IMG/VR virus record: IMGVR_UViG_3300049137_000145
Span: 29,477-93,476 of that record
Length of the DNA stretch: 64,000 nt
Direction: 5' to 3' (one strand)
Source: a virus
Below are positions 7,036 to 58,402 of the stretch, in pieces. Below the pieces are notes generated by a model that saw nothing but the letters and a program-made list of their open reading frames with translations, had not been told where the DNA came from and made no database searches. The translations under genes were made by a program, and so were the position numbers. The first letter of the stretch is position 1. Every line of letters starts with the position of its first letter.

Positions 7036-8112
7036 GTGACGATCATGAGTACGGGCGCCCCGTCACCGGTCCTCGCCTCCGCGATGCACGACCACCTCGC
7101 CGGGCTGCGCGAGCGGCTGGGCGCCGTACGGCCGCGCGACCGCCGCACCCGCCGGCTCGGGCCGCCGGTGTACCGGCTGGACCTGCTGCACGAGCTGGTG
7201 GAGCGCGAGACGTTCGGGCACGTTGTCACCTGGCTGCGCTCGCGCCGCTCCGACGGTACGGCCCGGGAGTACGCCGACGACGTCCGTCACTGGGCCCTGG
7301 CCGGACGGGAGTTGTGCGGCACCGAACCGTGGTACCTCGGCTCCATCACCTCGGACGTCATCCCGGTGTGGCGTGGCTGGGCGACGGAGGAACTGCGGCT
7401 CGGGCCCCGTCGCGTCAACCGCCTCGCGTCCAGCCTGACCTCGCTCATCGACTGGGTGAAGTACCGGACCCGGCAGGATCTGATCCACCCCATCACCCGG
7501 TACGACCGGTTCAAGGTCGACCCGAACGACGAGTCGTCCATGACCCCGATCCTGGAAGTCGCCGAGCTGCAAGCCGTGCTGGACGCATGCACCACGGCCC
7601 GGCAGGCGTTCGCGGTCTCCCTGATTTACACCCTGGCAGGCCGCGTCTCGGAGTGCTGCGATGCCGACGCGGACGACCTGTCCTCGGAATCAGGAACGTG
7701 CGTGCTCACCCTGCGGCGCAAGGGCGGCAAGACGGTCCCCTTCCCACTGCCGGCGGAACTGTGCGAGCTGGGCGCGGCGGCCTGGCGGGACAGCACGAGC
7801 ACGGCGCTCCTGCTCGATGACGACGGCCGGCCGATGGACCGCCACGCGGTGGACCGGCTGCTCAACCGCCTTGGGCGTACGGCCGGCGTCCTGCCCGGCC
7901 GGGATCTCACCCCGCACGTGCTCCGCGCGAGCAAGCTGACCCACATGTACGACGAGGGCACGGCGCCGGACGACATTCGCCGCTTCGCCGACCACGCGAA
8001 CGTCGCCACGACCATGCGGTACATCCGGCGCCGTACCAACTCCGGACTGCGCGCACGGCACACGCAAGCGGCTGTGAAGGTATACGAGGGCCTGGTGGAC
8101 CGGTTCCTGTGA
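7036..8112 (+). CDS. int: tyrosine recombinase / phage integrase
   Basis: C-terminal catalytic signature: ...LAGRVSE (R), PHVLRAS (HxxR), HANVATTMRYI (H...Y). The N-terminal SAM-like core-binding region is present. Confidence 0.9.
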   Translation: MTIMSTGAPSPVLASAMHDHLAGLRERLGAVRPRDRRTRRLGPPVYRLDLLHELVERETFGHVVTWLRSRRSDGTAREYADDVRHWALAGRELCGTEPWYLGSITSDVIPVWRGWATEELRLGPRRVNRLASSLTSLIDWVKYRTRQDLIHPITRYDRFKVDPNDESSMTPILEVAELQAVLDACTTARQAFAVSLIYTLAGRVSECCDADADDLSSESGTCVLTLRRKGGKTVPFPLPAELCELGAAAWRDSTSTALLLDDDGRPMDRHAVDRLLNRLGRTAGVLPGRDLTPHVLRASKLTHMYDEGTAPDDIRRFADHANVATTMRYIRRRTNSGLRARHTQAAVKVYEGLVDRFL

Positions 8113-16424: not shown

Positions 16425-16470
16425 CTCTCATTTAGTTAAATCCCCTGTTGATGGTTTTGTTAAACCATCT
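16425..16470 (-). promoter_or_regulatory. two degenerate AT-rich promoter-type boxes
   Basis: Minus strand ATGGTTTAACAAAACCATC and GATTTAACTAAATGA. There is no clear -35. Confidence 0.35.
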
Positions 16471-34997: not shown

Positions 34998-35038
34998 CGG
35001 GTATGATTTAGCTAAACCAAAGGAACGGAGACCCCGGG

Positions 35039-35487: not shown

Positions 35488-38400
35488 ATGACTCAGACGA
35501 CCCCTGAGCGCCAGCCGTGCGGGACGTGCGGCAAGCCGTGCTCCGTCAACGCGGACGGGACGGTCCGCCACCACCTCACCGACAACCCCGACTTCCAGGC
35601 CGGACCCGACAGCCGCAAATGCAAGGGTGCGGGGCAGCCACCGGCCGGCGCGGCCGGACTCGCCCTTGCCGAGGACATGGCAGCCGAGAAGCAGCCGCAG
35701 TGCCGTCTGTGCAAGCACCCGGTGGAGCTGACCAGTAACGGCCGGGCCCGCAGTCACCTGACGACCGAGCAGACGCCACGCCCCTGCCCCGGTGGCAGCG
35801 ACTTCCCGCTGGGGATGTACCCGGACATCGTCGGCACGACGGACGGCAGGGTGGCCACGCTCGTCACCGACTGCGGGCACGTCCCGGCAGGCCAGTGCTA
35901 CGGCTGCCACGGCGCGGCCGGGAAGCCGGTCAGCGACGCTGAACTGGACGCCATGGCGGAGGCCGAGGGCACCGGCGCGGCGCCGTGGGGCGTTGCCTCG
36001 GCGGCAATGCAGCAGCCGACCATGGCCGACCAGTTCACGACAGCGGCCGTGTCAGTGACCTGTGGGTGCGGCGCCTCGTGGCCGTCGAACGAGGAGATGC
36101 AGAAGGTCGGGCATGGTCTGACGCAGTGCCCGAAGGACCGCGCGGCCGGACCGTCTATGGCCGGTGAGTACCCGTTCCCGAAGACCTCGCCCCTCACGGC
36201 GCTGATGGAGCGGGAGGCGGCCGGCGTCGGGACGGTCCTGGACGCGATGGACGGTGACACCCGGACCGAGGCCGAGCAGTTCATGGACGCGACGGTCCCC
36301 ACGCAGCCGACGGCCCAGAACGAGTGCACGCACGACCGGTACGAGAACTTCGGCCTGAAGGCAGGAGTGCGCTGCGTCGCCTGCAACGCTCAGCACCCCG
36401 ATCCGCACGCCTACGCGGCTGACGTAGCCATTTCCACCGTGGAGGCTGAGCGGGACGAGGTGAACCGGCAGCACGCCGAAGTTCTGGCCGACGTTCGGCG
36501 TCGGGCCTACCCGGAAGGGGTCTACTGCGAGCAGTGCGACACCGACAACCACCGGTGCCCCGGCTGCGGCACGGATGTTCCGCATGGCACCGTGGCCTGC
36601 CCCGCGTGCACCCGGGAGACATGCACGCACCCCCACGGGTTCATCGAGAACGATCCGGTAGACGACGACGGCGAGGACCTGGTCTTCAGGTGCGGAGAGT
36701 GCGGCGCTGTAGGTGTCGGGGACAAACCGGCCGGTCCCGACCCCGAGCTGCCCAACTGCTCGTACCCGGAGACGCATCGCGCGGGCTGCGGCTGCCCGGA
36801 CGACGACAGTGCGTGCCGGGAGCCGGAGGACGGCTGGCGTACCCCGCTGGACCTCATGGAGAAGATGCCCGAGGACGTCCGGGGTCTGGACGCGCTGCGG
36901 CTCAACTGCGTGACGTGTGACCACCCGGTAACGCCGCTGGTGGACTACTTCGCTCCGGACGGTCGCGCGGCACGGGTCGTGTGGGCCTGCGAGAACCACC
37001 TGCACGCCACCAACCCGTGCCGGGACCACGAGTGCTCGCCGGACACCCGCGCCCGTCTCGGAGAGCTGGACGAAGGCGATTACTTCCTGCGGAACGGCAC
37101 GCTCATGCGCCTGACGGAACGGGAGTCGGGCAGCTCGGTGCTGGCTGAGGTGATGGACGGCCCGTACAAGGGCCGCACCGGCGAGCTGAAGAACCTGAAC
37201 GAAGTGGTTCAGCGAGCGCCCGAGCCGCAAGCCGTGGAGGAGCCCGAGGGTCAGGACTGCAAGCCGCAGGACAAGCCGTCGTTGGGCCCGGTGCGCGTCG
37301 GCGACCTGGAGCACGGTGACGTCTTCATCCGGCGCGGCACCGCCATGCGTGTGACGAGCGCGGGTTACGGCCTGGTGGAGGCCATCGTCGTGGACAACGG
37401 CCCGCACGCCGGGCGTACCGGTGAGTTGAGGAATCCGGACGAAGTGGTGGACCGCGCACCGTGCCGTCACGAATTCGCCTGGGCGGACGACGGCAAGTTC
37501 GGACACGCCGGGTCGTTCTGCGACTACTGCGGCGCCCCGGACCCCGCAGACCAGACCAAGGGACAGGAGACCACGGAATGCACGGACGACAGGACGCCGC
37601 AGCAGCGGCCCGCTTCTTCGGCGGCATCGACGCCGACAACGACCAGGGCGACCACGGACCTGGCCCCTGGTTCGAGGCCGCCTACCCCGGCGAGTGCGCC
37701 GGCTGTTTCGCCGAAATCGGGATCGGTGACATCATCCGCGCCGACGGCGAGGGCGGCTGGGAACGGCGGGAGTGCTGCGGTGACGACTGACCAGGCATCA
37801 GCGGCAGCGGCGTTCCTCGGCAGCGGGCGGCCGACGGCCTCGGCTTCGGCGGGTCCCGCGAATCAGGCGGACGCGGCGGCGCAGTTCCTCGCCGGCGGCT
37901 CGGGCGCGCACGGGGAGAAGGAGACCAAGCGCGACCGCTTCGGCAGGTACCTGATTCCGCACCCGGACACCGGTAAGGAGACCGCGTGGACGCGGTCCAC
38001 CACGTTCGCCAAGTCGATCAGCGACACGTACGCCCTGTCCCAGTGGGGGCTGCGCATGGCGCTGCTCGGGGCGACGATGCGGCCGGACATCGTGCGGCGG
38101 GCGCACGGCAAGCACGTCAGGGCGGACAAGGCCCTGCTGGACGAACTGACGGCGGAGCTGAAGAATGCGGCCGGTGACAAGGTCGCGGCCAATCTCGGCA
38201 CCGCGATGCACTCCTTCACGGAGATGGCGGACCGGGCGTGGCACTCCCCCGGCGGACCACGCAGCATCTTGGACCAGGTGCCGCCGGACTGTCGCGAGAT
38301 GGTCGAGACGTACATCCGGCTGCTGGAAGAGACGGGTCTGGAGCCCGTGCCGCACCTCATCGAGTTCACCACGGTCGTCAAGCAGTACGGCGTCGCCGGG

Positions 38401-39048
38401 ACCTCGGACAACTGCTACAAGGTCACCAAGCCGCTCACGCTGAAGATCGGCCGGGCCGAGGTCCGCTTCCAGCCGGGCGAGTACGTCATCGGCGACAAGA
38501 AGACCGGCCGGGACCTGGACTACGGCTGGCAGGAGATCGCCATTCAGCTCAGCACGTACGCGCAGGGCATCAACACAGCCGGTGTGTGGGACCGGCATGA
38601 CGAGGTCTGGGAGCCTGACCCGCTGAGCCGGTTCGACAAGCCGGGGACGAAGGTCCGCACGGACGCCGGGGTCGTCATTCACCTGCCGGTGGACCAGGAG
38701 TCCGAGAAGATGCCGACCGTCTACGGCGTTGATCTGGAGTCCGGCTGGAACGCGGCCGTGCTGTGTGAGCGGGTCAGGGCCTGGCGCAAGGTGCGCACCC
38801 TCGCCTCGCCGGTCATGGTCTCCGATGCGGACACGTTCGCCCCCGCGCGGTCCGAGCCGGCGGTTACCTCACGGACCACGGTCCGGCCGCCGTCGTTGAT
38901 GGACAAGGCGAGGGCGGTCACGTCCAAGAGCGAGGCATCTGCCGTGTGGAAGGAGGCCAAGACGGCCGGTCTGTCCGACGCAGAGGTGGACAGGCTGGTC
39001 GGCGTCATGCAGTCGCGGCTGAAGGAACTGGCCGAACCCGGGGGCTGA
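35488..39048 (+). CDS. uninterrupted 1186-aa ORF: multi-zinc-ribbon N-terminal part plus C-terminal PD-(D/E)XK (Cas4/RecB-like) exonuclease; probably composite (see findings)
   Basis: The N-terminal about 690 aa carry many CxxC pairs and two internal about 50-aa repeats (GD.F.R.GT.MR.T...GRTGEL.N..EVV.RAP). The C-terminal about 420 aa have GTAMHSF...GTSDNCYKV...VIGDKKTG...QLSTYAQG. Between 37578 and 37790 the codon bias favours another frame. Confidence 0.7.
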   Translation: MTQTTPERQPCGTCGKPCSVNADGTVRHHLTDNPDFQAGPDSRKCKGAGQPPAGAAGLALAEDMAAEKQPQCRLCKHPVELTSNGRARSHLTTEQTPRPCPGGSDFPLGMYPDIVGTTDGRVATLVTDCGHVPAGQCYGCHGAAGKPVSDAELDAMAEAEGTGAAPWGVASAAMQQPTMADQFTTAAVSVTCGCGASWPSNEEMQKVGHGLTQCPKDRAAGPSMAGEYPFPKTSPLTALMEREAAGVGTVLDAMDGDTRTEAEQFMDATVPTQPTAQNECTHDRYENFGLKAGVRCVACNAQHPDPHAYAADVAISTVEAERDEVNRQHAEVLADVRRRAYPEGVYCEQCDTDNHRCPGCGTDVPHGTVACPACTRETCTHPHGFIENDPVDDDGEDLVFRCGECGAVGVGDKPAGPDPELPNCSYPETHRAGCGCPDDDSACREPEDGWRTPLDLMEKMPEDVRGLDALRLNCVTCDHPVTPLVDYFAPDGRAARVVWACENHLHATNPCRDHECSPDTRARLGELDEGDYFLRNGTLMRLTERESGSSVLAEVMDGPYKGRTGELKNLNEVVQRAPEPQAVEEPEGQDCKPQDKPSLGPVRVGDLEHGDVFIRRGTAMRVTSAGYGLVEAIVVDNGPHAGRTGELRNPDEVVDRAPCRHEFAWADDGKFGHAGSFCDYCGAPDPADQTKGQETTECTDDRTPQQRPASSAASTPTTTRATTDLAPGSRPPTPASAPAVSPKSGSVTSSAPTARAAGNGGSAAVTTDQASAAAAFLGSGRPTASASAGPANQADAAAQFLAGGSGAHGEKETKRDRFGRYLIPHPDTGKETAWTRSTTFAKSISDTYALSQWGLRMALLGATMRPDIVRRAHGKHVRADKALLDELTAELKNAAGDKVAANLGTAMHSFTEMADRAWHSPGGPRSILDQVPPDCREMVETYIRLLEETGLEPVPHLIEFTTVVKQYGVAGTSDNCYKVTKPLTLKIGRAEVRFQPGEYVIGDKKTGRDLDYGWQEIAIQLSTYAQGINTAGVWDRHDEVWEPDPLSRFDKPGTKVRTDAGVVIHLPVDQESEKMPTVYGVDLESGWNAAVLCERVRAWRKVRTLASPVMVSDADTFAPARSEPAVTSRTTVRPPSLMDKARAVTSKSEASAVWKEAKTAGLSDAEVDRLVGVMQSRLKELAEPGG
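37578..37790 (+). CDS. candidate 70-aa gene in an alternative frame inside the giant ORF
   Basis: MHGRQDAAAAARFFGGIDADNDQGDHGPGPWFEAAYPGECAGCFAEIGIGDIIRADGEGGWERRECCGDD. Third positions are nearly all G/C. It is preceded by the leader-like GACCAAGGGACAGGAGACCACGGA. Its stop overlaps the in-frame GTG at 37780. Confidence 0.5.
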   Translation: MHGRQDAAAAARFFGGIDADNDQGDHGPGPWFEAAYPGECAGCFAEIGIGDIIRADGEGGWERRECCGDD

Positions 39049-39075
39049 AGAGGGTTTAACTAAATCCTCCGAAGG
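39045..39075 (+). promoter_or_regulatory. degenerate AT-rich promoter-type box
   Basis: GGGTTTAACTAAATCC, then TATCATAAAA. There is no clear -35. Confidence 0.35.
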
Positions 39076-39308
39076 GGTATCATAAAAGCACACGGAACAG
39101 CTCAACTCCGGGCGGGCAGAACCTTTGTGACGATTCGTCACCAACCCGCCCGGACCAACTCCACAGAGACCTCCCCGGAGCCGCACCCCTCCGTCTCCGG
39201 GGACACAGAAGACCCAACGACGAACCAGCCGTGCGGCAAGTAGCCCAAGGGCGAAACACCTACACCGGCGGTCGGCTCGGGGTCTGGCGGCGGCCGTAAA
39301 ACGCTGGA

Positions 39309-39404
39309 CGCGCGGTAGCTCAACAGGCCAGAGCCCCGAGGATCCGGACCGTCCCCCGTTCCGGCAGACCCTCGGAGATCCGGGTTCGAGACCCGGCCGC
39401 GCAC
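39309..39404 (+). tRNA. tRNA-like element with a non-canonical expanded anticodon arm (possible Arg-CCG with a 21-nt insertion)
   Basis: Acceptor CGCGCGG/CCGCGCA with a C1-A72 mismatch. TA, then D-arm GCTC-AACAGGCCA-GAGC. Anticodon stem CCGAGG/CCTCGG encloses 28 nt containing an inner CCGGA/TCCGG helix. Variable loop AGAT. T-arm CCGGG-TTCGAGA-CCCGG. No CCA is encoded. Confidence 0.45.
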
Positions 39405-39484
39405 CGGAGCCACGCACTACCGGCTCCCCTCCACCGCCGCCGGCGGCAGAGGCACACAGGAACACAGCAGACAGGATCACAGGC

Positions 39485-40066
39485 ATGACCACTGCACCGC
39501 AGACCGACCCCTTCAGCGCCGACGCCGCGAAGGCGGCTGCCTTCCTCGGCGGGGGCACCGTCGCCGCGAAGTTCCCCACGGAGGGGTTCGTGGTCGAGGG
39601 GACCATCCTCTCCTTCCGGATGGCGCAGCAGACCGACATGGAGTCGGGCGAGCTGCTGTTCTGGGAAGGAAAGGAGCAGGTCGAGCAGTCCAAGCTCAAG
39701 TTCCCGCAGTCGGCCCGGCCGTGCGAACAGCTCGTCATCGAGCTTCAGTGCGAGCCGACCGGCGTCACGTGGGAGACCAACCGGTATGTGGAGCGTCAGC
39801 TCCCCGACGACGACGGCCTGCGCACCCTGTACGTCAAGGGAGGGCTCCAGCAGGCCGTCGGCAAAGCCCTGCGTGACGCCGACGTCCGGGCTCCGGAGAT
39901 CGGAGGCAAGCTGAAGGTCCAGCGCGGCAAGGACACCAAGCGCGCCGGGAGCAAGTACTACAGCTACACGTACACCGCGCAGTACACCCGGGCCGACCAG
40001 AACGGCGACCAGGCGGCCGGGTTCCTCGCGCAGGGGGGTGAGGCGCCGGACCCGTTCGGCGGCTGA
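39485..40066 (+). CDS. hypothetical protein (193 aa), possible recombination/ssDNA partner of the upstream nuclease
   Basis: Listed ORF with N-terminal AAKAAAFLGGG and C-terminal AAGFLAQGGEAPDPFGG motifs. The function is a guess from position only. Confidence 0.6.
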   Translation: MTTAPQTDPFSADAAKAAAFLGGGTVAAKFPTEGFVVEGTILSFRMAQQTDMESGELLFWEGKEQVEQSKLKFPQSARPCEQLVIELQCEPTGVTWETNRYVERQLPDDDGLRTLYVKGGLQQAVGKALRDADVRAPEIGGKLKVQRGKDTKRAGSKYYSYTYTAQYTRADQNGDQAAGFLAQGGEAPDPFGG

Positions 40067-48187: not shown

Positions 48188-48232
48188 GGGTTGTGCGGCC
48201 ACTGGAGAAATGGTTTAGTTAAATCAGTCTGG
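48187..48232 (+). promoter_or_regulatory. conserved phage promoter
   Basis: GGGGTTGTGC: -35 at 48191-96, spacer 17 nt, -10 TTTAGT at 48214-19, followed by TAAATCAG. Confidence 0.7.
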
Positions 48233-49193: not shown

Positions 49194-49240
49194 GGTCGCC
49201 GGGCGGATGGTTTAATTAAATCAGTCGGGAGGGATCCCGG
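49194..49240 (+). promoter_or_regulatory. conserved phage promoter
   Basis: GGGGTTGTGC: -35 at 49198-49203, spacer 17 nt, -10 TTTAAT at 49221-26. Confidence 0.7.
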
Positions 49241-49248
49241 CGGACAAC

Positions 49249-49401
49249 TCCACAGAGAGCAGGCCTCCCGTACGTGCTGGCTGTACGGGCGTAACCATGG
49301 GACTGACGAAGCCGAAGAGGGCGCGGAGAGCACCCGCGATACTGGGCAGACCCCCTCAAGGATCACGTAGCACCCGCCATGGCAGCCCTGCTCTCTGTGG
49401 A
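49249..49401 (+). ncRNA. structured leader / candidate ncRNA closed by a 15-bp perfect helix
   Basis: TCCACAGAGAGCAGG (49249-63) pairs with CCTGCTCTCTGTGGA (49387-401). An inner hairpin is CCCGTAC-n9-GTACGGG. There is no convincing ORF between promoter 49194 and the 49431 start. Confidence 0.45.
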
Positions 49402-57706: not shown

Positions 57707-57752
57707 GGGGGTTGTGCCCGCCCGGCACCTATGATTTAGTTAATCCATCGGA
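57707..57752 (+). promoter_or_regulatory. conserved phage promoter
   Basis: GGGGGTTGTGC: -35 at 57712-17, spacer 17 nt, -10 TTTAGT at 57735-40, followed by TAATCCATCGG. Confidence 0.7.
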
Positions 57753-58221: not shown

Positions 58222-58402
58222 CACAGCCCGCCCCGGGGCCGTCGACCGGCGGCCCCGGCCCGAGCAGAGACACAAGGAGAACCGACGGCTACACCCTCAC
58301 AGGCGACTGAGCACCGCTCGGGGCCACGGCCGGACGTCCCGTCCGTGGCCCCTGTGAGGCAGCTCAGCCTCCGACCCGCGAGACACGAGGAGAACCGACA
58401 CG

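Follow-up and report, generated by a model that had tools for sequence, protein, structure and literature searches.

Apparently undescribed tRNA-like elements between Streptomyces and Mycobacterium phage genes, most likely RNA-cutting signals

RNase P binds the stack formed by the T-stem-loop and the acceptor stem and measures from the elbow, in a sequence-independent manner. In the mascRNA and MEN-beta systems (MALAT1 and NEAT1), the upstream RNA owes its 3′ end to RNase P cleavage, and the small RNA is completed by RNase Z together with the CCA enzyme. RNase Z and the CCA-adding enzyme likewise register on the tRNA elbow (PMC4919913). In plant mitochondria, the so-called t-elements, which have a GGTTCRANYCC T-arm, direct the cleavage of mRNAs by RNase P and RNase Z (Forner et al. 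2007, PMC1920247). A tRNA mimic of phages and actinobacteria, YrlA, carries modules resembling the T- and D-arms, is a substrate of tRNA enzymes and lies beside Ro60 (Rsr) (Chen et al. 2014, PMC4201824).

As listed in Table 1, the window (i.e., the whole stretch of viral DNA that was analysed, 64,000 nucleotides long) holds a tRNA-like module that follows a structured leader. An earlier note had described a cloverleaf here, at 39309-39404, with canonical D- and T-loops and a C1-A72 mismatch, and all of these were found in the sequence. The same note had placed the module at the end of a promoter-proximal leader, with nested hairpins upstream and a box shared with a second leader at 49.2 kb. 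A promoter-like site was indeed found (39056-39083), the hairpins are present in the folds, and the boxes common to the two leaders turned out to be two, GGTTTAAYTAAATC and CAACTCCACAGAGA.

Table 1. Coordinates of the tRNA-like module, its leader and its surroundings in the window
Feature	Positions	Strand	Description
Hairpin with an AT-rich box as tip	39050-39069	+	box GGTTTAACTAAATC at 39053-39066; overlaps the end of the upstream gene and the -35 of the promoter-like site
Promoter-like site	39056-39083	+	TTAACT-16-TATCAT; 9/12 match, 0.0 expected in shuffles
Structured conserved 5′ leader	39090-39308	+
Leader hairpin	39107-39154	+
Leader box	39156-39169	+	CAACTCCACAGAGA
Leader hairpin	39172-39203	+
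Leader multibranch domain	39210-39284	+	closed by AGACC/GGUCU; A-U to C-G covariation at the closing helix
Small invariant hairpin	39288-39306	+	CGGCG/CGCUG; ends 2 nt before the module
tRNA-like module, C1-C73	39309-39404	+	6-bp acceptor helix, unpaired C1×A72, D-arm, variable loop AGAU, T-arm; C1 = 39309, A72 = 39403, C73 = 39404
Acceptor strand G2-G7	39310-39315 / 39397-39402		U8 and A9 next
D-stem	39318-39321 / 39331-39334		GCTC/GAGC; D-loop AACAGGCCA
Extended closed arm replacing the anticodon stem-loop	39336-39375	+	per-homolog folds
Outer helix of the arm	39336-39341 / 39370-39375		CCGAGG/CCTCGG; encloses 28 nt (39342-39369)
C-rich apical loop of the arm	39349-39359		CCGUCCCCCGU; below it, inner helix CCGGA/UCCGG and internal loop AU/CAGAC
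T-arm	39380-39396		CCGGG-TTCGAGA-CCCGG; variable loop AGAT
Predicted RNase P site	39308/39309		putative
Predicted RNase Z site	after 39404		putative
Hairpin A	39406-39427	+	GGAGCC/GGCUCC; starts 2 nt past the module; stem invariant in 10 homologs, loop variable
Hairpin B	39428-39452	+	CCUC..GAGG, inner CCGCC/GGCGG; GC-rich, without U-tract
First downstream ORF	39485-40066	+	193 aa, phrog_1911 (function unknown); AGGA 9 nt upstream of ATG

When the module was folded in isolation, both the minimum free energy and the centroid structure were the cloverleaf (-45.2 kcal/mol, z = -2.77), none of 200 shuffles was as stable, and the cloverleaf was retained upon folding of the whole 398-nt leader. The module has the 7-bp acceptor, the D-arm, the T-arm and the tertiary nucleotides expected of a cloverleaf, save that the 1-72 pair is open; the nucleotides of the tertiary contacts (U8, A14, G18G19 and, within UUCGAGA, U54-U55-C56...A58) are all intact. 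What is retained is precisely what tRNA-maturation enzymes read, namely the coaxial acceptor/T-stem (11 bp plus the unpaired 1×72, then C73) and the elbow of D-loop and T-loop.

Of the tools that the earlier note had suggested, ARAGORN reported the module as tRNA-Arg(CCG), at 39309-39405, and the Rfam tRNA model (RF00005) left the window copy unreported, at the gathering score as well as at E ≤ 10. The gathering threshold of that model (29 bits) was passed by two family members: L007, the ortholog whose arm is the shortest among the homologs (41.5 bits, E = 1.7e-7), and a paralogous insert-bearing tRNA-like element on a sequenced plasmid relative (42.2 bits), a genome in which the window-type form, with its full cloverleaf and long closed arm, is represented by two different elements. 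Because L007 scores 41.5 bits against Rfam tRNA, we take the module to be tRNA-derived. In Rfam, neither the leader nor the module matched any family.

Relatives were found through the neighbouring protein and through DNA patterns; megablast and blastn searches of the locus against deposited phages gave no match, nor did a metagenome scan with the first DNA pattern. The ten distinct homologs so obtained (window included) come from ~95-kb Streptomyces phage-plasmid-like elements, and all keep the acceptor, D and T arms. In these ten, 93.5% of the cells assigned to pairs are paired, vs 27-44% when the partners are slid, six pairs show compensatory changes, and none of 500 shuffles was as good; the structure is beyond chance. 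The earlier note's claim that the module is tRNA-like, and not an ordinary tRNA, holds as well. The window-type acceptor helix and ~25 nt on each side of it are invariant, with no covariation, and this hints at a sequence-specific recognition that a shape-reading RNase P would not need. Position 1 is an A in one homolog (L014).

In the alignment, all 10 homologs have an unchanged -10 region (GGGTATCATAAAAGCA). At the hairpin that overlaps the promoter-like site, the arms differ among homologs yet are complementary (GAGG/CCUC, UGAUCCGG/CCGGAUCA, AGAGGG/CCUCU and others); the AT-rich box at its tip is repeated at 49209-49222 and elsewhere. Hairpin B also covaries, reading UCCCG../..CGGGA in L003 and L015.

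The segment that takes the place of the anticodon stem-loop had been described as a 28-nt anticodon loop with an intron-type insertion. The count of 28 nt inside CCGAGG/CCTCGG was exact, as was the presence of CCGGA/TCCGG among them, but the interpretation is not supported: the segment is a closed helical extension whose length and sequence vary and whose outer stem covaries, with compensatory changes in 4/5 pairs. Across homologs the arm is a closed, irregular hairpin of 26-45 nt, very different in sequence and with a C-rich tip, and the per-homolog folds expose a run of C at the apical loop in every case. That the arm sequence is not conserved was first indicated by an exact scan of viral contigs for the window's own arm, which came back empty. 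When duplex partners of the C-rich apical loop were sought over the window and the whole plasmid relative, only the element's own antisense strand came up, and no target common to both genomes. The long, C-tipped arm could be a handle for a protein or for RNase III.

Elements of a shorter form, which we call minis, are present in sequenced actinophages. They are 43 nt long and consist of an acceptor, a D-loop remnant and a T-arm, with neither D-stem nor anticodon arm. By BLAST they occur, unannotated, at 323 places in 144 sequenced actinophage records (among the phages carrying them are widely used ones such as Joe, Lika-like phages, Konstantine, Damien and Papyrus), and they occupy consecutive intergenic gaps of early operons in Streptomyces and Mycobacterium phages. 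Among 100 distinct copies, 99.2% of the cells are paired, 10/11 pairs show compensatory changes, and none of 500 shuffles matches the structure. Acceptor stems are diverse among copies; the T-loop sequence, the GG of the D-loop remnant and the helix length are strictly conserved. The helix has 11 bp and an unpaired N×A end followed by C73, and the linker is fixed (11 nt, ACYGGCAGACA). In 163 copies, position 1 is mainly A (121), otherwise C (22), G (17) or T (3), and the 3′ tail is AC in 139 and GC in 16, i.e., position 72 is mostly A, then comes C73.

The placement of the minis follows a rigid syntax: stop, tRNA-like element, hairpin, SD, start. Their first nucleotide lies a median of 8 nt past the stop of the upstream ORF, and the next start codon a median of 40 nt downstream; the 35 nt downstream of minis fold at -10.7 kcal/mol (vs -6.7 for shuffles), and a hairpin equivalent to hairpin A of the window comes after the minis. 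A contig can carry up to 12 copies, all co-oriented with the genes and never on both strands. One 44-nt copy is 100% identical in Streptomyces phage Joe and in Mycobacterium phages Thumb, Damien and Megatron06. Rfam gave nothing on the minis beyond a sub-threshold mascRNA match. The genes downstream of the element in the window, in Joe and in Oaker are not homologous to one another, and we consequently dropped the idea of a conserved RNA-protein gene pair. A pattern for bridging forms (GTTCGAGN7CGCGCAC) was also discarded as too loose, 114 of its 118 matches being GC-rich coding sequence.

The relationship between the two forms was assessed with two covariance models. The cloverleaf model (R2), against which the window module scores 97.7 bits, picks up minis in Joe and Damien, with a best score of 28.7 bits (E = 0.003); in the loci of these two phages it gives 14 matches with E < 1, every one of them a mini. 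With filters off, the mini model (R1) recovered only the T-arm in the window, at 15.1 bits and E = 0.25, which is below significance; on the plasmid ortholog it gave 23.6 bits (E = 0.006). Since R1 is not significant on the window copy, the family link rests on R2, on BLAST of the window element, which matched intergenic stretches without annotation in phages Joe and Oaker (E = 0.07), and on the motifs that both forms have in common. These are GCGCG/CGCGC, an ACUGGC D-loop, AGAC/U, UUCGAGN and the A72-C73 tail; the 11-bp helix, the unpaired N×A72, a hairpin after the element and the orientation with the genes are also common to both. Placement differs, the window copy standing ~225 nt downstream of its own promoter and not, as the minis, close to a stop codon. 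On these sequence comparisons, we regard the window element as the elaborate form, present in a single copy, of an actinophage family that is widespread.

Like t-elements, the phage elements are non-decoding tRNA-like structures in mRNA precursors, near or between coding regions, with a perfectly conserved T-arm and an acceptor-like helix. They also agree with the t-element sequence definition (a GGTTCRANYCC T-arm and an acceptor-like helix, in an mRNA precursor between cistrons), and the mini syntax fits the logic of t-elements and tRNA punctuation. However, RNase P and RNase Z make the mRNA ends with which t-element ends coincide, whereas for the phage elements cleavage is predicted. Unlike t-elements, moreover, the phage elements belong to a bacterial virus, form a sequence family with the ACYGGCAGACA linker, the 11-bp helix, the N×A end and C73, and include a window form with a full D-arm and a long closed arm. 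In the mascRNA-menRNA family (RF01684), as in our proposal for the window, a tRNA-like module ends a long structured RNA, and the split into leader, module and mRNA is the same design; that family differs in being eukaryotic and nuclear and in keeping a short anticodon-like stem. Scores against RF01684 (17.6 bits for L007, 26.2 bits for one Joe copy) are below its gathering score of 42.5, and the likeness is one of design only.

YrlA is circularly permuted with respect to the module: in YrlA the long stem, which carries the Ro site, is the open one and the acceptor-like stem the closed one, whereas the module has an open acceptor and a closed long arm. No TROVE gene was named on the complete relative and no Rfam YrlA match was obtained. 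The minis resemble tmRNA in the acceptor/T-arm helix and in a D-loop analogue that lacks a D-stem, and the window form resembles it in the long helix that exits on the anticodon-arm side. Unlike tmRNA, however, the element is contiguous (43-111 nt), has C3:G70 in place of G3:U70, and contains no tag reading frame or pseudoknots; ARAGORN returned no tmRNA. With initiator tRNAs the module shares the unpaired 1-72, and the earlier note had read C1-A72 in that sense, but an initiator tRNA combines it with A73, a CAU anticodon and three G:C pairs at the base of the anticodon stem. The module has C73 and no CAU, and position 1, besides being A in L014, is variable in the minis. C1×A72 is the unpaired helix end common to the family and no fMet signature. 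A histidine-tRNA-like identity (G-1:C73) was considered for C73 and rejected, as the base 5′ of the helix is not a G-1 paired to C73.

Our leading interpretation, to which we give roughly even chances, is that the element serves as a punctuation signal, a tRNA mimic at which host RNase P and RNase Z cut the transcript. Transcription would start from the conserved promoter at ~39.06 kb, and the module would lie in the leader of an early operon that belongs to a Streptomyces phage-plasmid-like element; host RNase P would then cut at 39308/39309, and a 3′ endonuclease, host RNase Z or its equivalent, after C73 (39404). The products would be a ~220-nt structured leader RNA with the small hairpin at its end, a ~96-nt tRNA-like RNA, and a downstream mRNA starting at hairpin A, which would act as a 5′ cap against 5′-end-dependent decay. 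The minis, gap by gap in early operons, would be to phages what tRNA punctuation and t-elements are to mitochondria. Among the PGAP names on the complete relative there is no tRNA-processing, RNA-ligase/RtcB, endonuclease or Ro60 (TROVE) gene, and host enzymes would therefore have to act. The helix, with 11 bp and a mismatch instead of the canonical 12 bp, could shift or weaken RNase P cleavage. Of the options raised in the earlier note, a processing signal is the best explanation and a decoy is a rival. More tentatively, we envisage a dedicated and hitherto unrecognised class of actinophage tRNA mimics that punctuates early operons, with RNase P and RNase Z dicing polycistronic transcripts into hairpin-capped monocistronic mRNAs; the window form would be dual, freeing a ~220-nt regulatory leader as well as a stable ~96-nt tRNA-shaped RNA whose long C-tipped arm would act as a decoy or regulator by binding a factor of the host or the phage.

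We consider it unlikely that the element works in trans, as a stable tRNA mimic (decoy, sponge or regulator) that titrates or redirects a host tRNA-binding factor. Candidate partners would be a tRNA-targeting defence nuclease, a nucleotidyltransferase toxin, the CCA-adding enzyme, a modification enzyme or the ribosomal L1 stalk, and the C-rich arm tip could be a second binding surface. This reading is favoured by the conserved, strong-looking early promoter, by the invariance of the window-type acceptor end and flanks, suggestive of sequence-specific recognition, by the C run that the apical loop always shows and by the multiple minis with diverse acceptor stems; YrlA, a phage-encoded tRNA mimic that binds a protein, Ro60, sets a precedent (PMC4201824). 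Yet no conserved partner gene adjoins the element (the genes that follow it in the window, Joe and Oaker being unrelated), nothing like Ro60 or RtcB is named on the complete relative, neither the window nor the plasmid contains a conserved complementary target of the C-rich loop, and the stop-element-hairpin-SD-start order of the minis resembles a function in cis. A structural insulator or end-protector, left uncut by RNase P, seems to us a still less probable alternative: it would block 3′-to-5′ exonucleases or Rho, or be a terminator or attenuator that lacks a U-tract, setting the stability or read-through of neighbouring cistrons. The position of the minis, ~8 nt past stop codons and with a hairpin after them, is consistent with this, as are the two GC-rich hairpins without U-tract that follow the window module and the suboptimal RNase P ruler length of an 11-bp helix with a mismatch. 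A plain hairpin would suffice for that role, however, and the strictly kept T-loop, D-remnant GG and helix length point to a reader of the tRNA elbow.

That the element decodes, as a tRNA-Arg(CCG) or an initiator-like tRNA whose short intron-like insertion is removed or tolerated, is hardly credible. For the window and L003 ARAGORN does report an insert-bearing tRNA-Arg(CCG), the cloverleaf arms and tertiary-contact nucleotides are those of a canonical tRNA, and the window copy resembles intron-containing pre-tRNAs in its extra nucleotides at the anticodon loop and in a would-be anticodon paired inside the insert. Nevertheless, ARAGORN found Arg(CCG) in only these 2/10 distinct homologs, with an undetermined anticodon in L007 and no call in 7/10. 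Neither the CCG triplet nor any other anticodon is conserved, and we found no 5-bp anticodon stem with a 7-nt loop and an orthologously conserved anticodon. The insert ranges from ~9 to ~35 nt, with covariation keeping the helix closed; in the window it has 21 nt, much below group I intron size, and no group I core, and AU and CAGAC are directly opposed as an internal loop, not staggered across a 4-bp helix, so that there is no bulge-helix-bulge. In agreement with the earlier note, we know of no means by which bacteria would splice such an insert, and the relative has no gene named as an RNA ligase or endonuclease. An unpaired 1-72 followed by C73 does not mark an initiator, and the mini relatives lack any anticodon arm; we take the module to be a structural RNA without decoding ability. 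Equally hard to credit is a feature acting at the DNA level, either an attP/integration-site mimic or a decaying captured host tRNA gene, both of which had been put forward. tRNA genes are frequent integration sites of actinophages, the 3′ half of the module looks like generic T-arm/acceptor sequence, and the relative has an integrase, but that gene is ~32 kb away from the element, and the attP of Joe, which has a serine integrase, is annotated elsewhere. Both halves of the cloverleaf are present, carrying compensatory changes that would be pointless in a site required to match a host gene, G·U pairs are workable on the + (transcribed) strand only, and the relatives reach 12 copies per contig, co-oriented with the genes. 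A selfish, dispersed tRNA-derived repeat (MITE- or REP-like), spreading among actinophages and functionless for the phage, could explain multiple intergenic copies and the identical 44-nt copy in Joe and three Mycobacterium phages. We deem it very unlikely: orientation is strictly transcriptional and placement fixed relative to stop and start codons, covariation among paralogs preserves the RNA structure, and the window-type copy is single, with orthologous placement in 10 genomes.

The literature contained no description of such elements that we could find, and there is no matching Rfam family. A literal motif match in the literature, ACCGGCAGACAC within the R4 attB coding sequence, is unrelated and a coincidence. 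The tRNA-like family between Streptomyces and Mycobacterium phage genes is thus apparently undescribed, and its members are most likely RNA-cutting signals. If the proposed mechanism is true, hundreds of sequenced actinophages would contain unannotated control of gene expression, with up to a dozen modules each, and host tRNA-maturation enzymes would be recruited to process phage mRNAs. "tRNA punctuation" would then reach from organelles to bacterial viruses, as its first counterpart there. It would also account for many conserved intergenic gaps left blank by annotators and for the odd "tRNA with intron" calls of ARAGORN in high-GC phages, and would provide compact, portable RNA-processing parts for the engineering of Streptomyces and Mycobacterium. 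The window form, for its part, illustrates the conversion of a tRNA gene into a non-decoding structural RNA.

The module at window positions 39309-39404 (+) is flanked by two + strand ORFs that are 436 nt apart: the one on its 5' side encodes a 1186-aa protein whose C-terminus is of the Cas4 exonuclease type, the one on its 3' side a 193-aa phrog_1911 protein. A promoter-like TTAACT-16-TATCAT is found about 225 nt upstream of the module. The earlier note had described a tRNA-like element with a C1-A72 mismatch and a 28-nt anticodon loop, and all the structural features it named were indeed found in the sequence (see the table). When folded in isolation, the module forms a cloverleaf as both MFE and centroid structure (-45.2 kcal/mol, z = -2.77, 0/200 shuffles), which is retained when the whole 398-nt leader is folded.

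Structural features of the tRNA-like module and further box sites in the window
Feature	Position	Strand	Basis
C1	39309	+	sequence
Acceptor helix, 6 bp	39310-15 paired with 39397-402	+	sequence
A72, unpaired against C1	39403	+	sequence
C73	39404	+	sequence
U8-A9, then 4-bp D-stem; D-loop AACAGGCCA including GG		+	sequence
Variable loop AGAU; T-arm CCGGG-UUCGAGA-CCCGG		+	sequence
CCGAGG/CCUCGG helix in the anticodon stem-loop position, enclosing exactly 28 nt, including CCGGA/UCCGG	39342-39369 (enclosed)	+	
Other box sites	16430-16440, 16455-16470, 35005-35018, 48214-48223, 57733-57743	-	

Scans with ARAGORN and against Rfam had been proposed in the earlier note. ARAGORN did call a tRNA-Arg(CCG) at 39309-39405, the sole tRNA call in the window, but the CCG call recurred in just 2/10 distinct homologs (the window copy and locus L003); L007 was given an undetermined anticodon, and 7/10 received no call. 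The Rfam scan returned no match for the window copy, whether at the gathering score, at E ≤ 10 (local) or at E ≤ 0.05 (window-wide).

The whole leader is common to the 10 distinct homologs, with a mean column identity of 71%. Invariant throughout are the -10 region, the box CAACUCCACAGAG, the 22 nt directly 5' of the module (GGCGGCGGCCGUAAAACGCUGG), the acceptor with the 5' half of the D-arm, and the T-arm with the acceptor's 3' strand, plus CCGGAGCC. No two lineages have the same arm between D-arm and T-arm: that of L007 has 26 nt, forming a 9-bp stem and the loop UCCCGAUC, those of most homologs have about 37-40 nt, and that of L001 has 45 nt. Each folds as a single closed irregular hairpin, in which an outer helix is followed by an internal loop, then by an inner CCGG/CCGG helix and finally by an apical loop exposing a C run in every homolog. 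In a structure-aware alignment of the 10 homologs, 93.5% of the cells were paired, versus 27-44% when the partners were slid; six pairs showed compensatory changes (four of the five outer-helix pairs of the arm, one in the D-stem and one in the T-stem), and this covariation was equalled by 0/500 shuffles. Several pairs are G.U, functional on the + strand only, implying a constraint on RNA and not a DNA symmetry. A covariance model of the full cloverleaf scored the ten window-type elements at 75-111 bits, the lowest being L001; besides the longest arm, this locus (L001:3802-3912) carries an additional hairpin of about 16 nt (AGCC-CUCACA-GGCU) in the D-loop.

No anticodon is conserved among the 10 distinct homologs. 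Position 1 is C in nine of them and A in L014, so that 1-72 is never paired. The L007 copy matches the Rfam tRNA family at 41.5 bits (E = 1.7e-7), with its arm handled as a 16-nt loop insertion. Judged from its sequence, the element is tRNA-derived, and we hold with high confidence that it is a conserved, non-decoding structural RNA of that origin. It failed the defining tests for decoding tRNA, initiator tRNA, intron-containing tRNA, tmRNA, YrlA and mascRNA. The C1-A72 mismatch, seen in the earlier note as an initiator-tRNA hallmark, loses that significance with the failure of the initiator tests and the A at position 1 in L014. The idea that the 28-nt loop holds an intron-type insertion fared no better, the arm being a closed hairpin of variable length and sequence whose outer helix covaries. 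Its AU/CAGAC internal loop is directly opposed and therefore not a bulge-helix-bulge; a group I intron was rejected for an insert of 21 nt.

The window has a G+C content of about 69%, and no close relative of it was found among deposited phages. The genes neighbouring the module match actinophage replication genes, and relatives of the locus, located via the downstream protein and DNA patterns, are contigs of about 93-99 kb from Streptomyces isolates and soil metagenomes. One of them, the 98.8-kb linear plasmid pS1D4-14.2 (NZ_CP041606.1), has genes for terminase, portal, major capsid and tape-measure proteins as well as for ParA, ParB, a P4-family primase and an integrase. A Streptomyces phage-plasmid-like element is therefore the most likely origin of the window. 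The upstream gene (35488-39048, +) is an unusually long fusion. Its resemblance to phage Cas4/RecB-type exonucleases (phrog_466) is confined to the C-terminal ~500 aa; for the N-terminal ~650 aa, the family searches gave nothing but a sub-threshold KOW motif. A more distant phrog_1911 relative (46% identity) has a leader of about 130 nt with a plain hairpin and without the tRNA-like module (L002:3790-3925), so the module is not obligatorily tied to this gene.

Searching with the full-cloverleaf model, we found a second tRNA-like element on the plasmid, on the - strand at about 89341-89439 (L018:39341-39439), 38 nt after one gene and 43 nt before another, co-oriented one. It matches Rfam tRNA at 42.2 bits with a 33-nt anticodon-loop insertion, and was not called by ARAGORN. 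Here too the arm consists of a long closed hairpin (CCCG-GAGCGCG...CGCGCUC-CGGG), unrelated in sequence to the window type, and the end of the element is normal (G1:C72, A73). No counterpart was found within the window. The only nearby gaps in the PGAP locus tags, FNV66_RS00750 and FNV66_RS01220, coincide with the two plasmid elements; PGAP may therefore have called both as RNA genes, whether tRNA or other; RNA features are omitted from the plasmid gene table.

The box that the earlier note saw in both the 39-kb and the 49.2-kb leaders proved to be two, GGTTTAATTAAATC and CAACTCCACAGAGA, at 49209-49258 (+). The latter is invariant in 10/10 homolog leaders; at both sites a GC-rich hairpin lies 3' of it (39172-39203 and ~49266-49290), which resembles a boxA plus boxB (nut-like) layout. 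The AT-rich box, palindromic at its core, occurs several more times in the window and could be an operator/regulator site or an antitermination signal. It also forms the tip of a hairpin (39050-39069) whose arms vary among homologs yet remain complementary; this hairpin overlaps both the upstream stop codon and the promoter-like site's -35, and may act as terminator for the upstream operon or as a regulated promoter hairpin. Elsewhere, a stretch of GC-rich hairpins just 5' of an SD and ATG (58308-58380, +) weakly matches the HDV-like CPEB3 ribozyme (25.2 bits, gathering score 35, E = 0.023). The matching portion has no conserved equivalent in the plasmid relative, a 153-codon open frame possibly overlaps it in this high-GC DNA, and it is probably a chance hit.

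When the 97-nt module was compared by BLAST with deposited phages, only its 3' 30 nt matched (27/30 identical, E = 0.07), at intergenic sites that carry no annotation in Streptomyces phage Joe and Mycobacterium phage Oaker. These loci hold a 43-nt miniature, N / GCGCG / ACUGGCAGACA / UCCGGG-UUCGAGU-CCCGGA / CGCGC / AC, which lacks the D-stem and the entire anticodon arm, and has in common with the module the acceptor strands, the D-loop core ACUGGC, a variable-loop-like AGAC, the T-loop and an unpaired NxA72 followed by C73. A 44-mer is 100% identical in Joe and the Mycobacterium phages Thumb, Damien and Megatron06, which suggests cross-genus exchange or extreme constraint. It matches 144 phage records (hosts: Streptomyces 109, Mycobacterium 27, Gordonia 4, Microbacterium 3) at 323 places, nearly all without an annotated feature.

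Joe (KX815338, 36000-48941) carries eight copies in its early right arm, all on the coding strand and each in an intergenic gap of its own, and Damien (NC_024371, 34000-52000) carries eight as well. Two Damien copies (L022:6016-6056, 7332-7371) have the linker (G)AUGGUCGAA(A/G) instead of ACUGGCAGACA, and a Joe variant (L021:12108-12164) has a 30-nt linker with an extra hairpin. Copies vary by compensating changes, their acceptor stems including GCGCG, GCCUG, GGGUG, GGGCAG, CCGUG and UGCGUG and their T-stems UCCGGG, CCCCGG, CCAGGG and UCGAGG; in 13 copies, 99.2% of cells were paired, with compensatory changes at 8/11 pairs. An exact linker and T-loop pattern retrieved 52 IMG/VR contigs, in which a covariance model of the minis found 166 copies. 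For 100 distinct sequences, pairing was 99.2%, compensation reached 10/11 pairs (284 double-change cells), and 0/500 shuffles matched this. Statistics on 163 copies in 45 contigs revealed a regular syntax: copies within a contig (maximum 12) always share one strand, a long ORF ends a median 8 nt upstream (148/163), the base before the helix is A in 121/163, the tail is AC in 139/163, and the next start codon lies a median 40 nt downstream. The 35 nt 3' of the mini are more structured than shuffles (-10.7 vs -6.7 kcal/mol).

The mini model was not significant on the window (T-arm alone, 15.1 bits, E = 0.25) and gave 23.6 bits (E = 0.006) on the plasmid ortholog. Conversely, in 31 kb of Joe and Damien, all 14 hits of the cloverleaf model at E < 1 were minis (best 28.7 bits, E = 0.003). 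Together with this result, the link is supported by an idiosyncratic end common to both forms (an 11-bp coaxial helix, which divides as 6+5 in the window and as 5+6 in the minis, with the unpaired NxA72 and C73), by linker motifs and by the following hairpin. On these sequence grounds, the window element is probably a homologous, full-size, elaborated relative of the minis, which look like precise deletions of D-stem and arm.

What is kept in all members is the tRNA portion read by maturation enzymes. As textbooks describe, acceptor/T-arm minihelices suffice as substrates for RNase P, RNase Z and the CCA-adding enzyme. Independently of sequence, RNase P docks on the stack of T-stem-loop and acceptor and gauges a fixed distance from the elbow; RNase Z and the CCA-adding enzyme also register on the elbow, and the CCA enzyme tags weak acceptor stems with CCACCA for decay (PMC4919913). 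In plant mitochondria, t-elements are non-decoding tRNA-like structures with the same T-arm GGTTCRANYCC as the phage elements; they guide the cuts by RNase P and RNase Z from which mRNA ends arise, and once excised bear non-templated C/A (PMC1920247). The phage element matches their design, as it does the mascRNA principle, despite failing the mascRNA tests. The fixed order at the minis (stop codon, ~8 nt, element, AC, hairpin, SD, start) is as would be expected of a punctuation signal, and we give punctuation by RNase P/Z an even chance. Cuts would be predicted at 39308/39309 and after 39404, freeing a structured leader RNA of ~220 nt, with the small hairpin 39288-39306 as its last feature, and a tRNA-like RNA of ~96 nt; the remaining mRNA would begin 2 nt 5' of hairpin A (39406-39427). 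The long arm looks like an irregular duplex of ~16 bp that contains an internal loop, and may serve as a site for a protein or RNase III.

A released decoy or regulator would suit the early promoter and the invariance of acceptor end and flanks in the window type, but it would have neither a conserved partner gene nor a Ro60-like gene, and seems unlikely to us; no conserved complement to the C-rich tip of the arm was found in the window or plasmid. We regard as quite improbable a non-cleaved insulator or end-protector, which would leave the strict retention of T-loop, GG and helix length unexplained. The data above also speak against an intron-bearing decoding tRNA, against a relic of an att site and against a selfish repeat.

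No family in Rfam 15 covers the leader, the window-type module or the minis, and no published description of the element was found by topic or literal motif in the full-text literature available without subscription. The element belongs with the known tRNA-like processing or mimic elements, and what appears new is its form in actinophages, with an unusual closed, extended arm.
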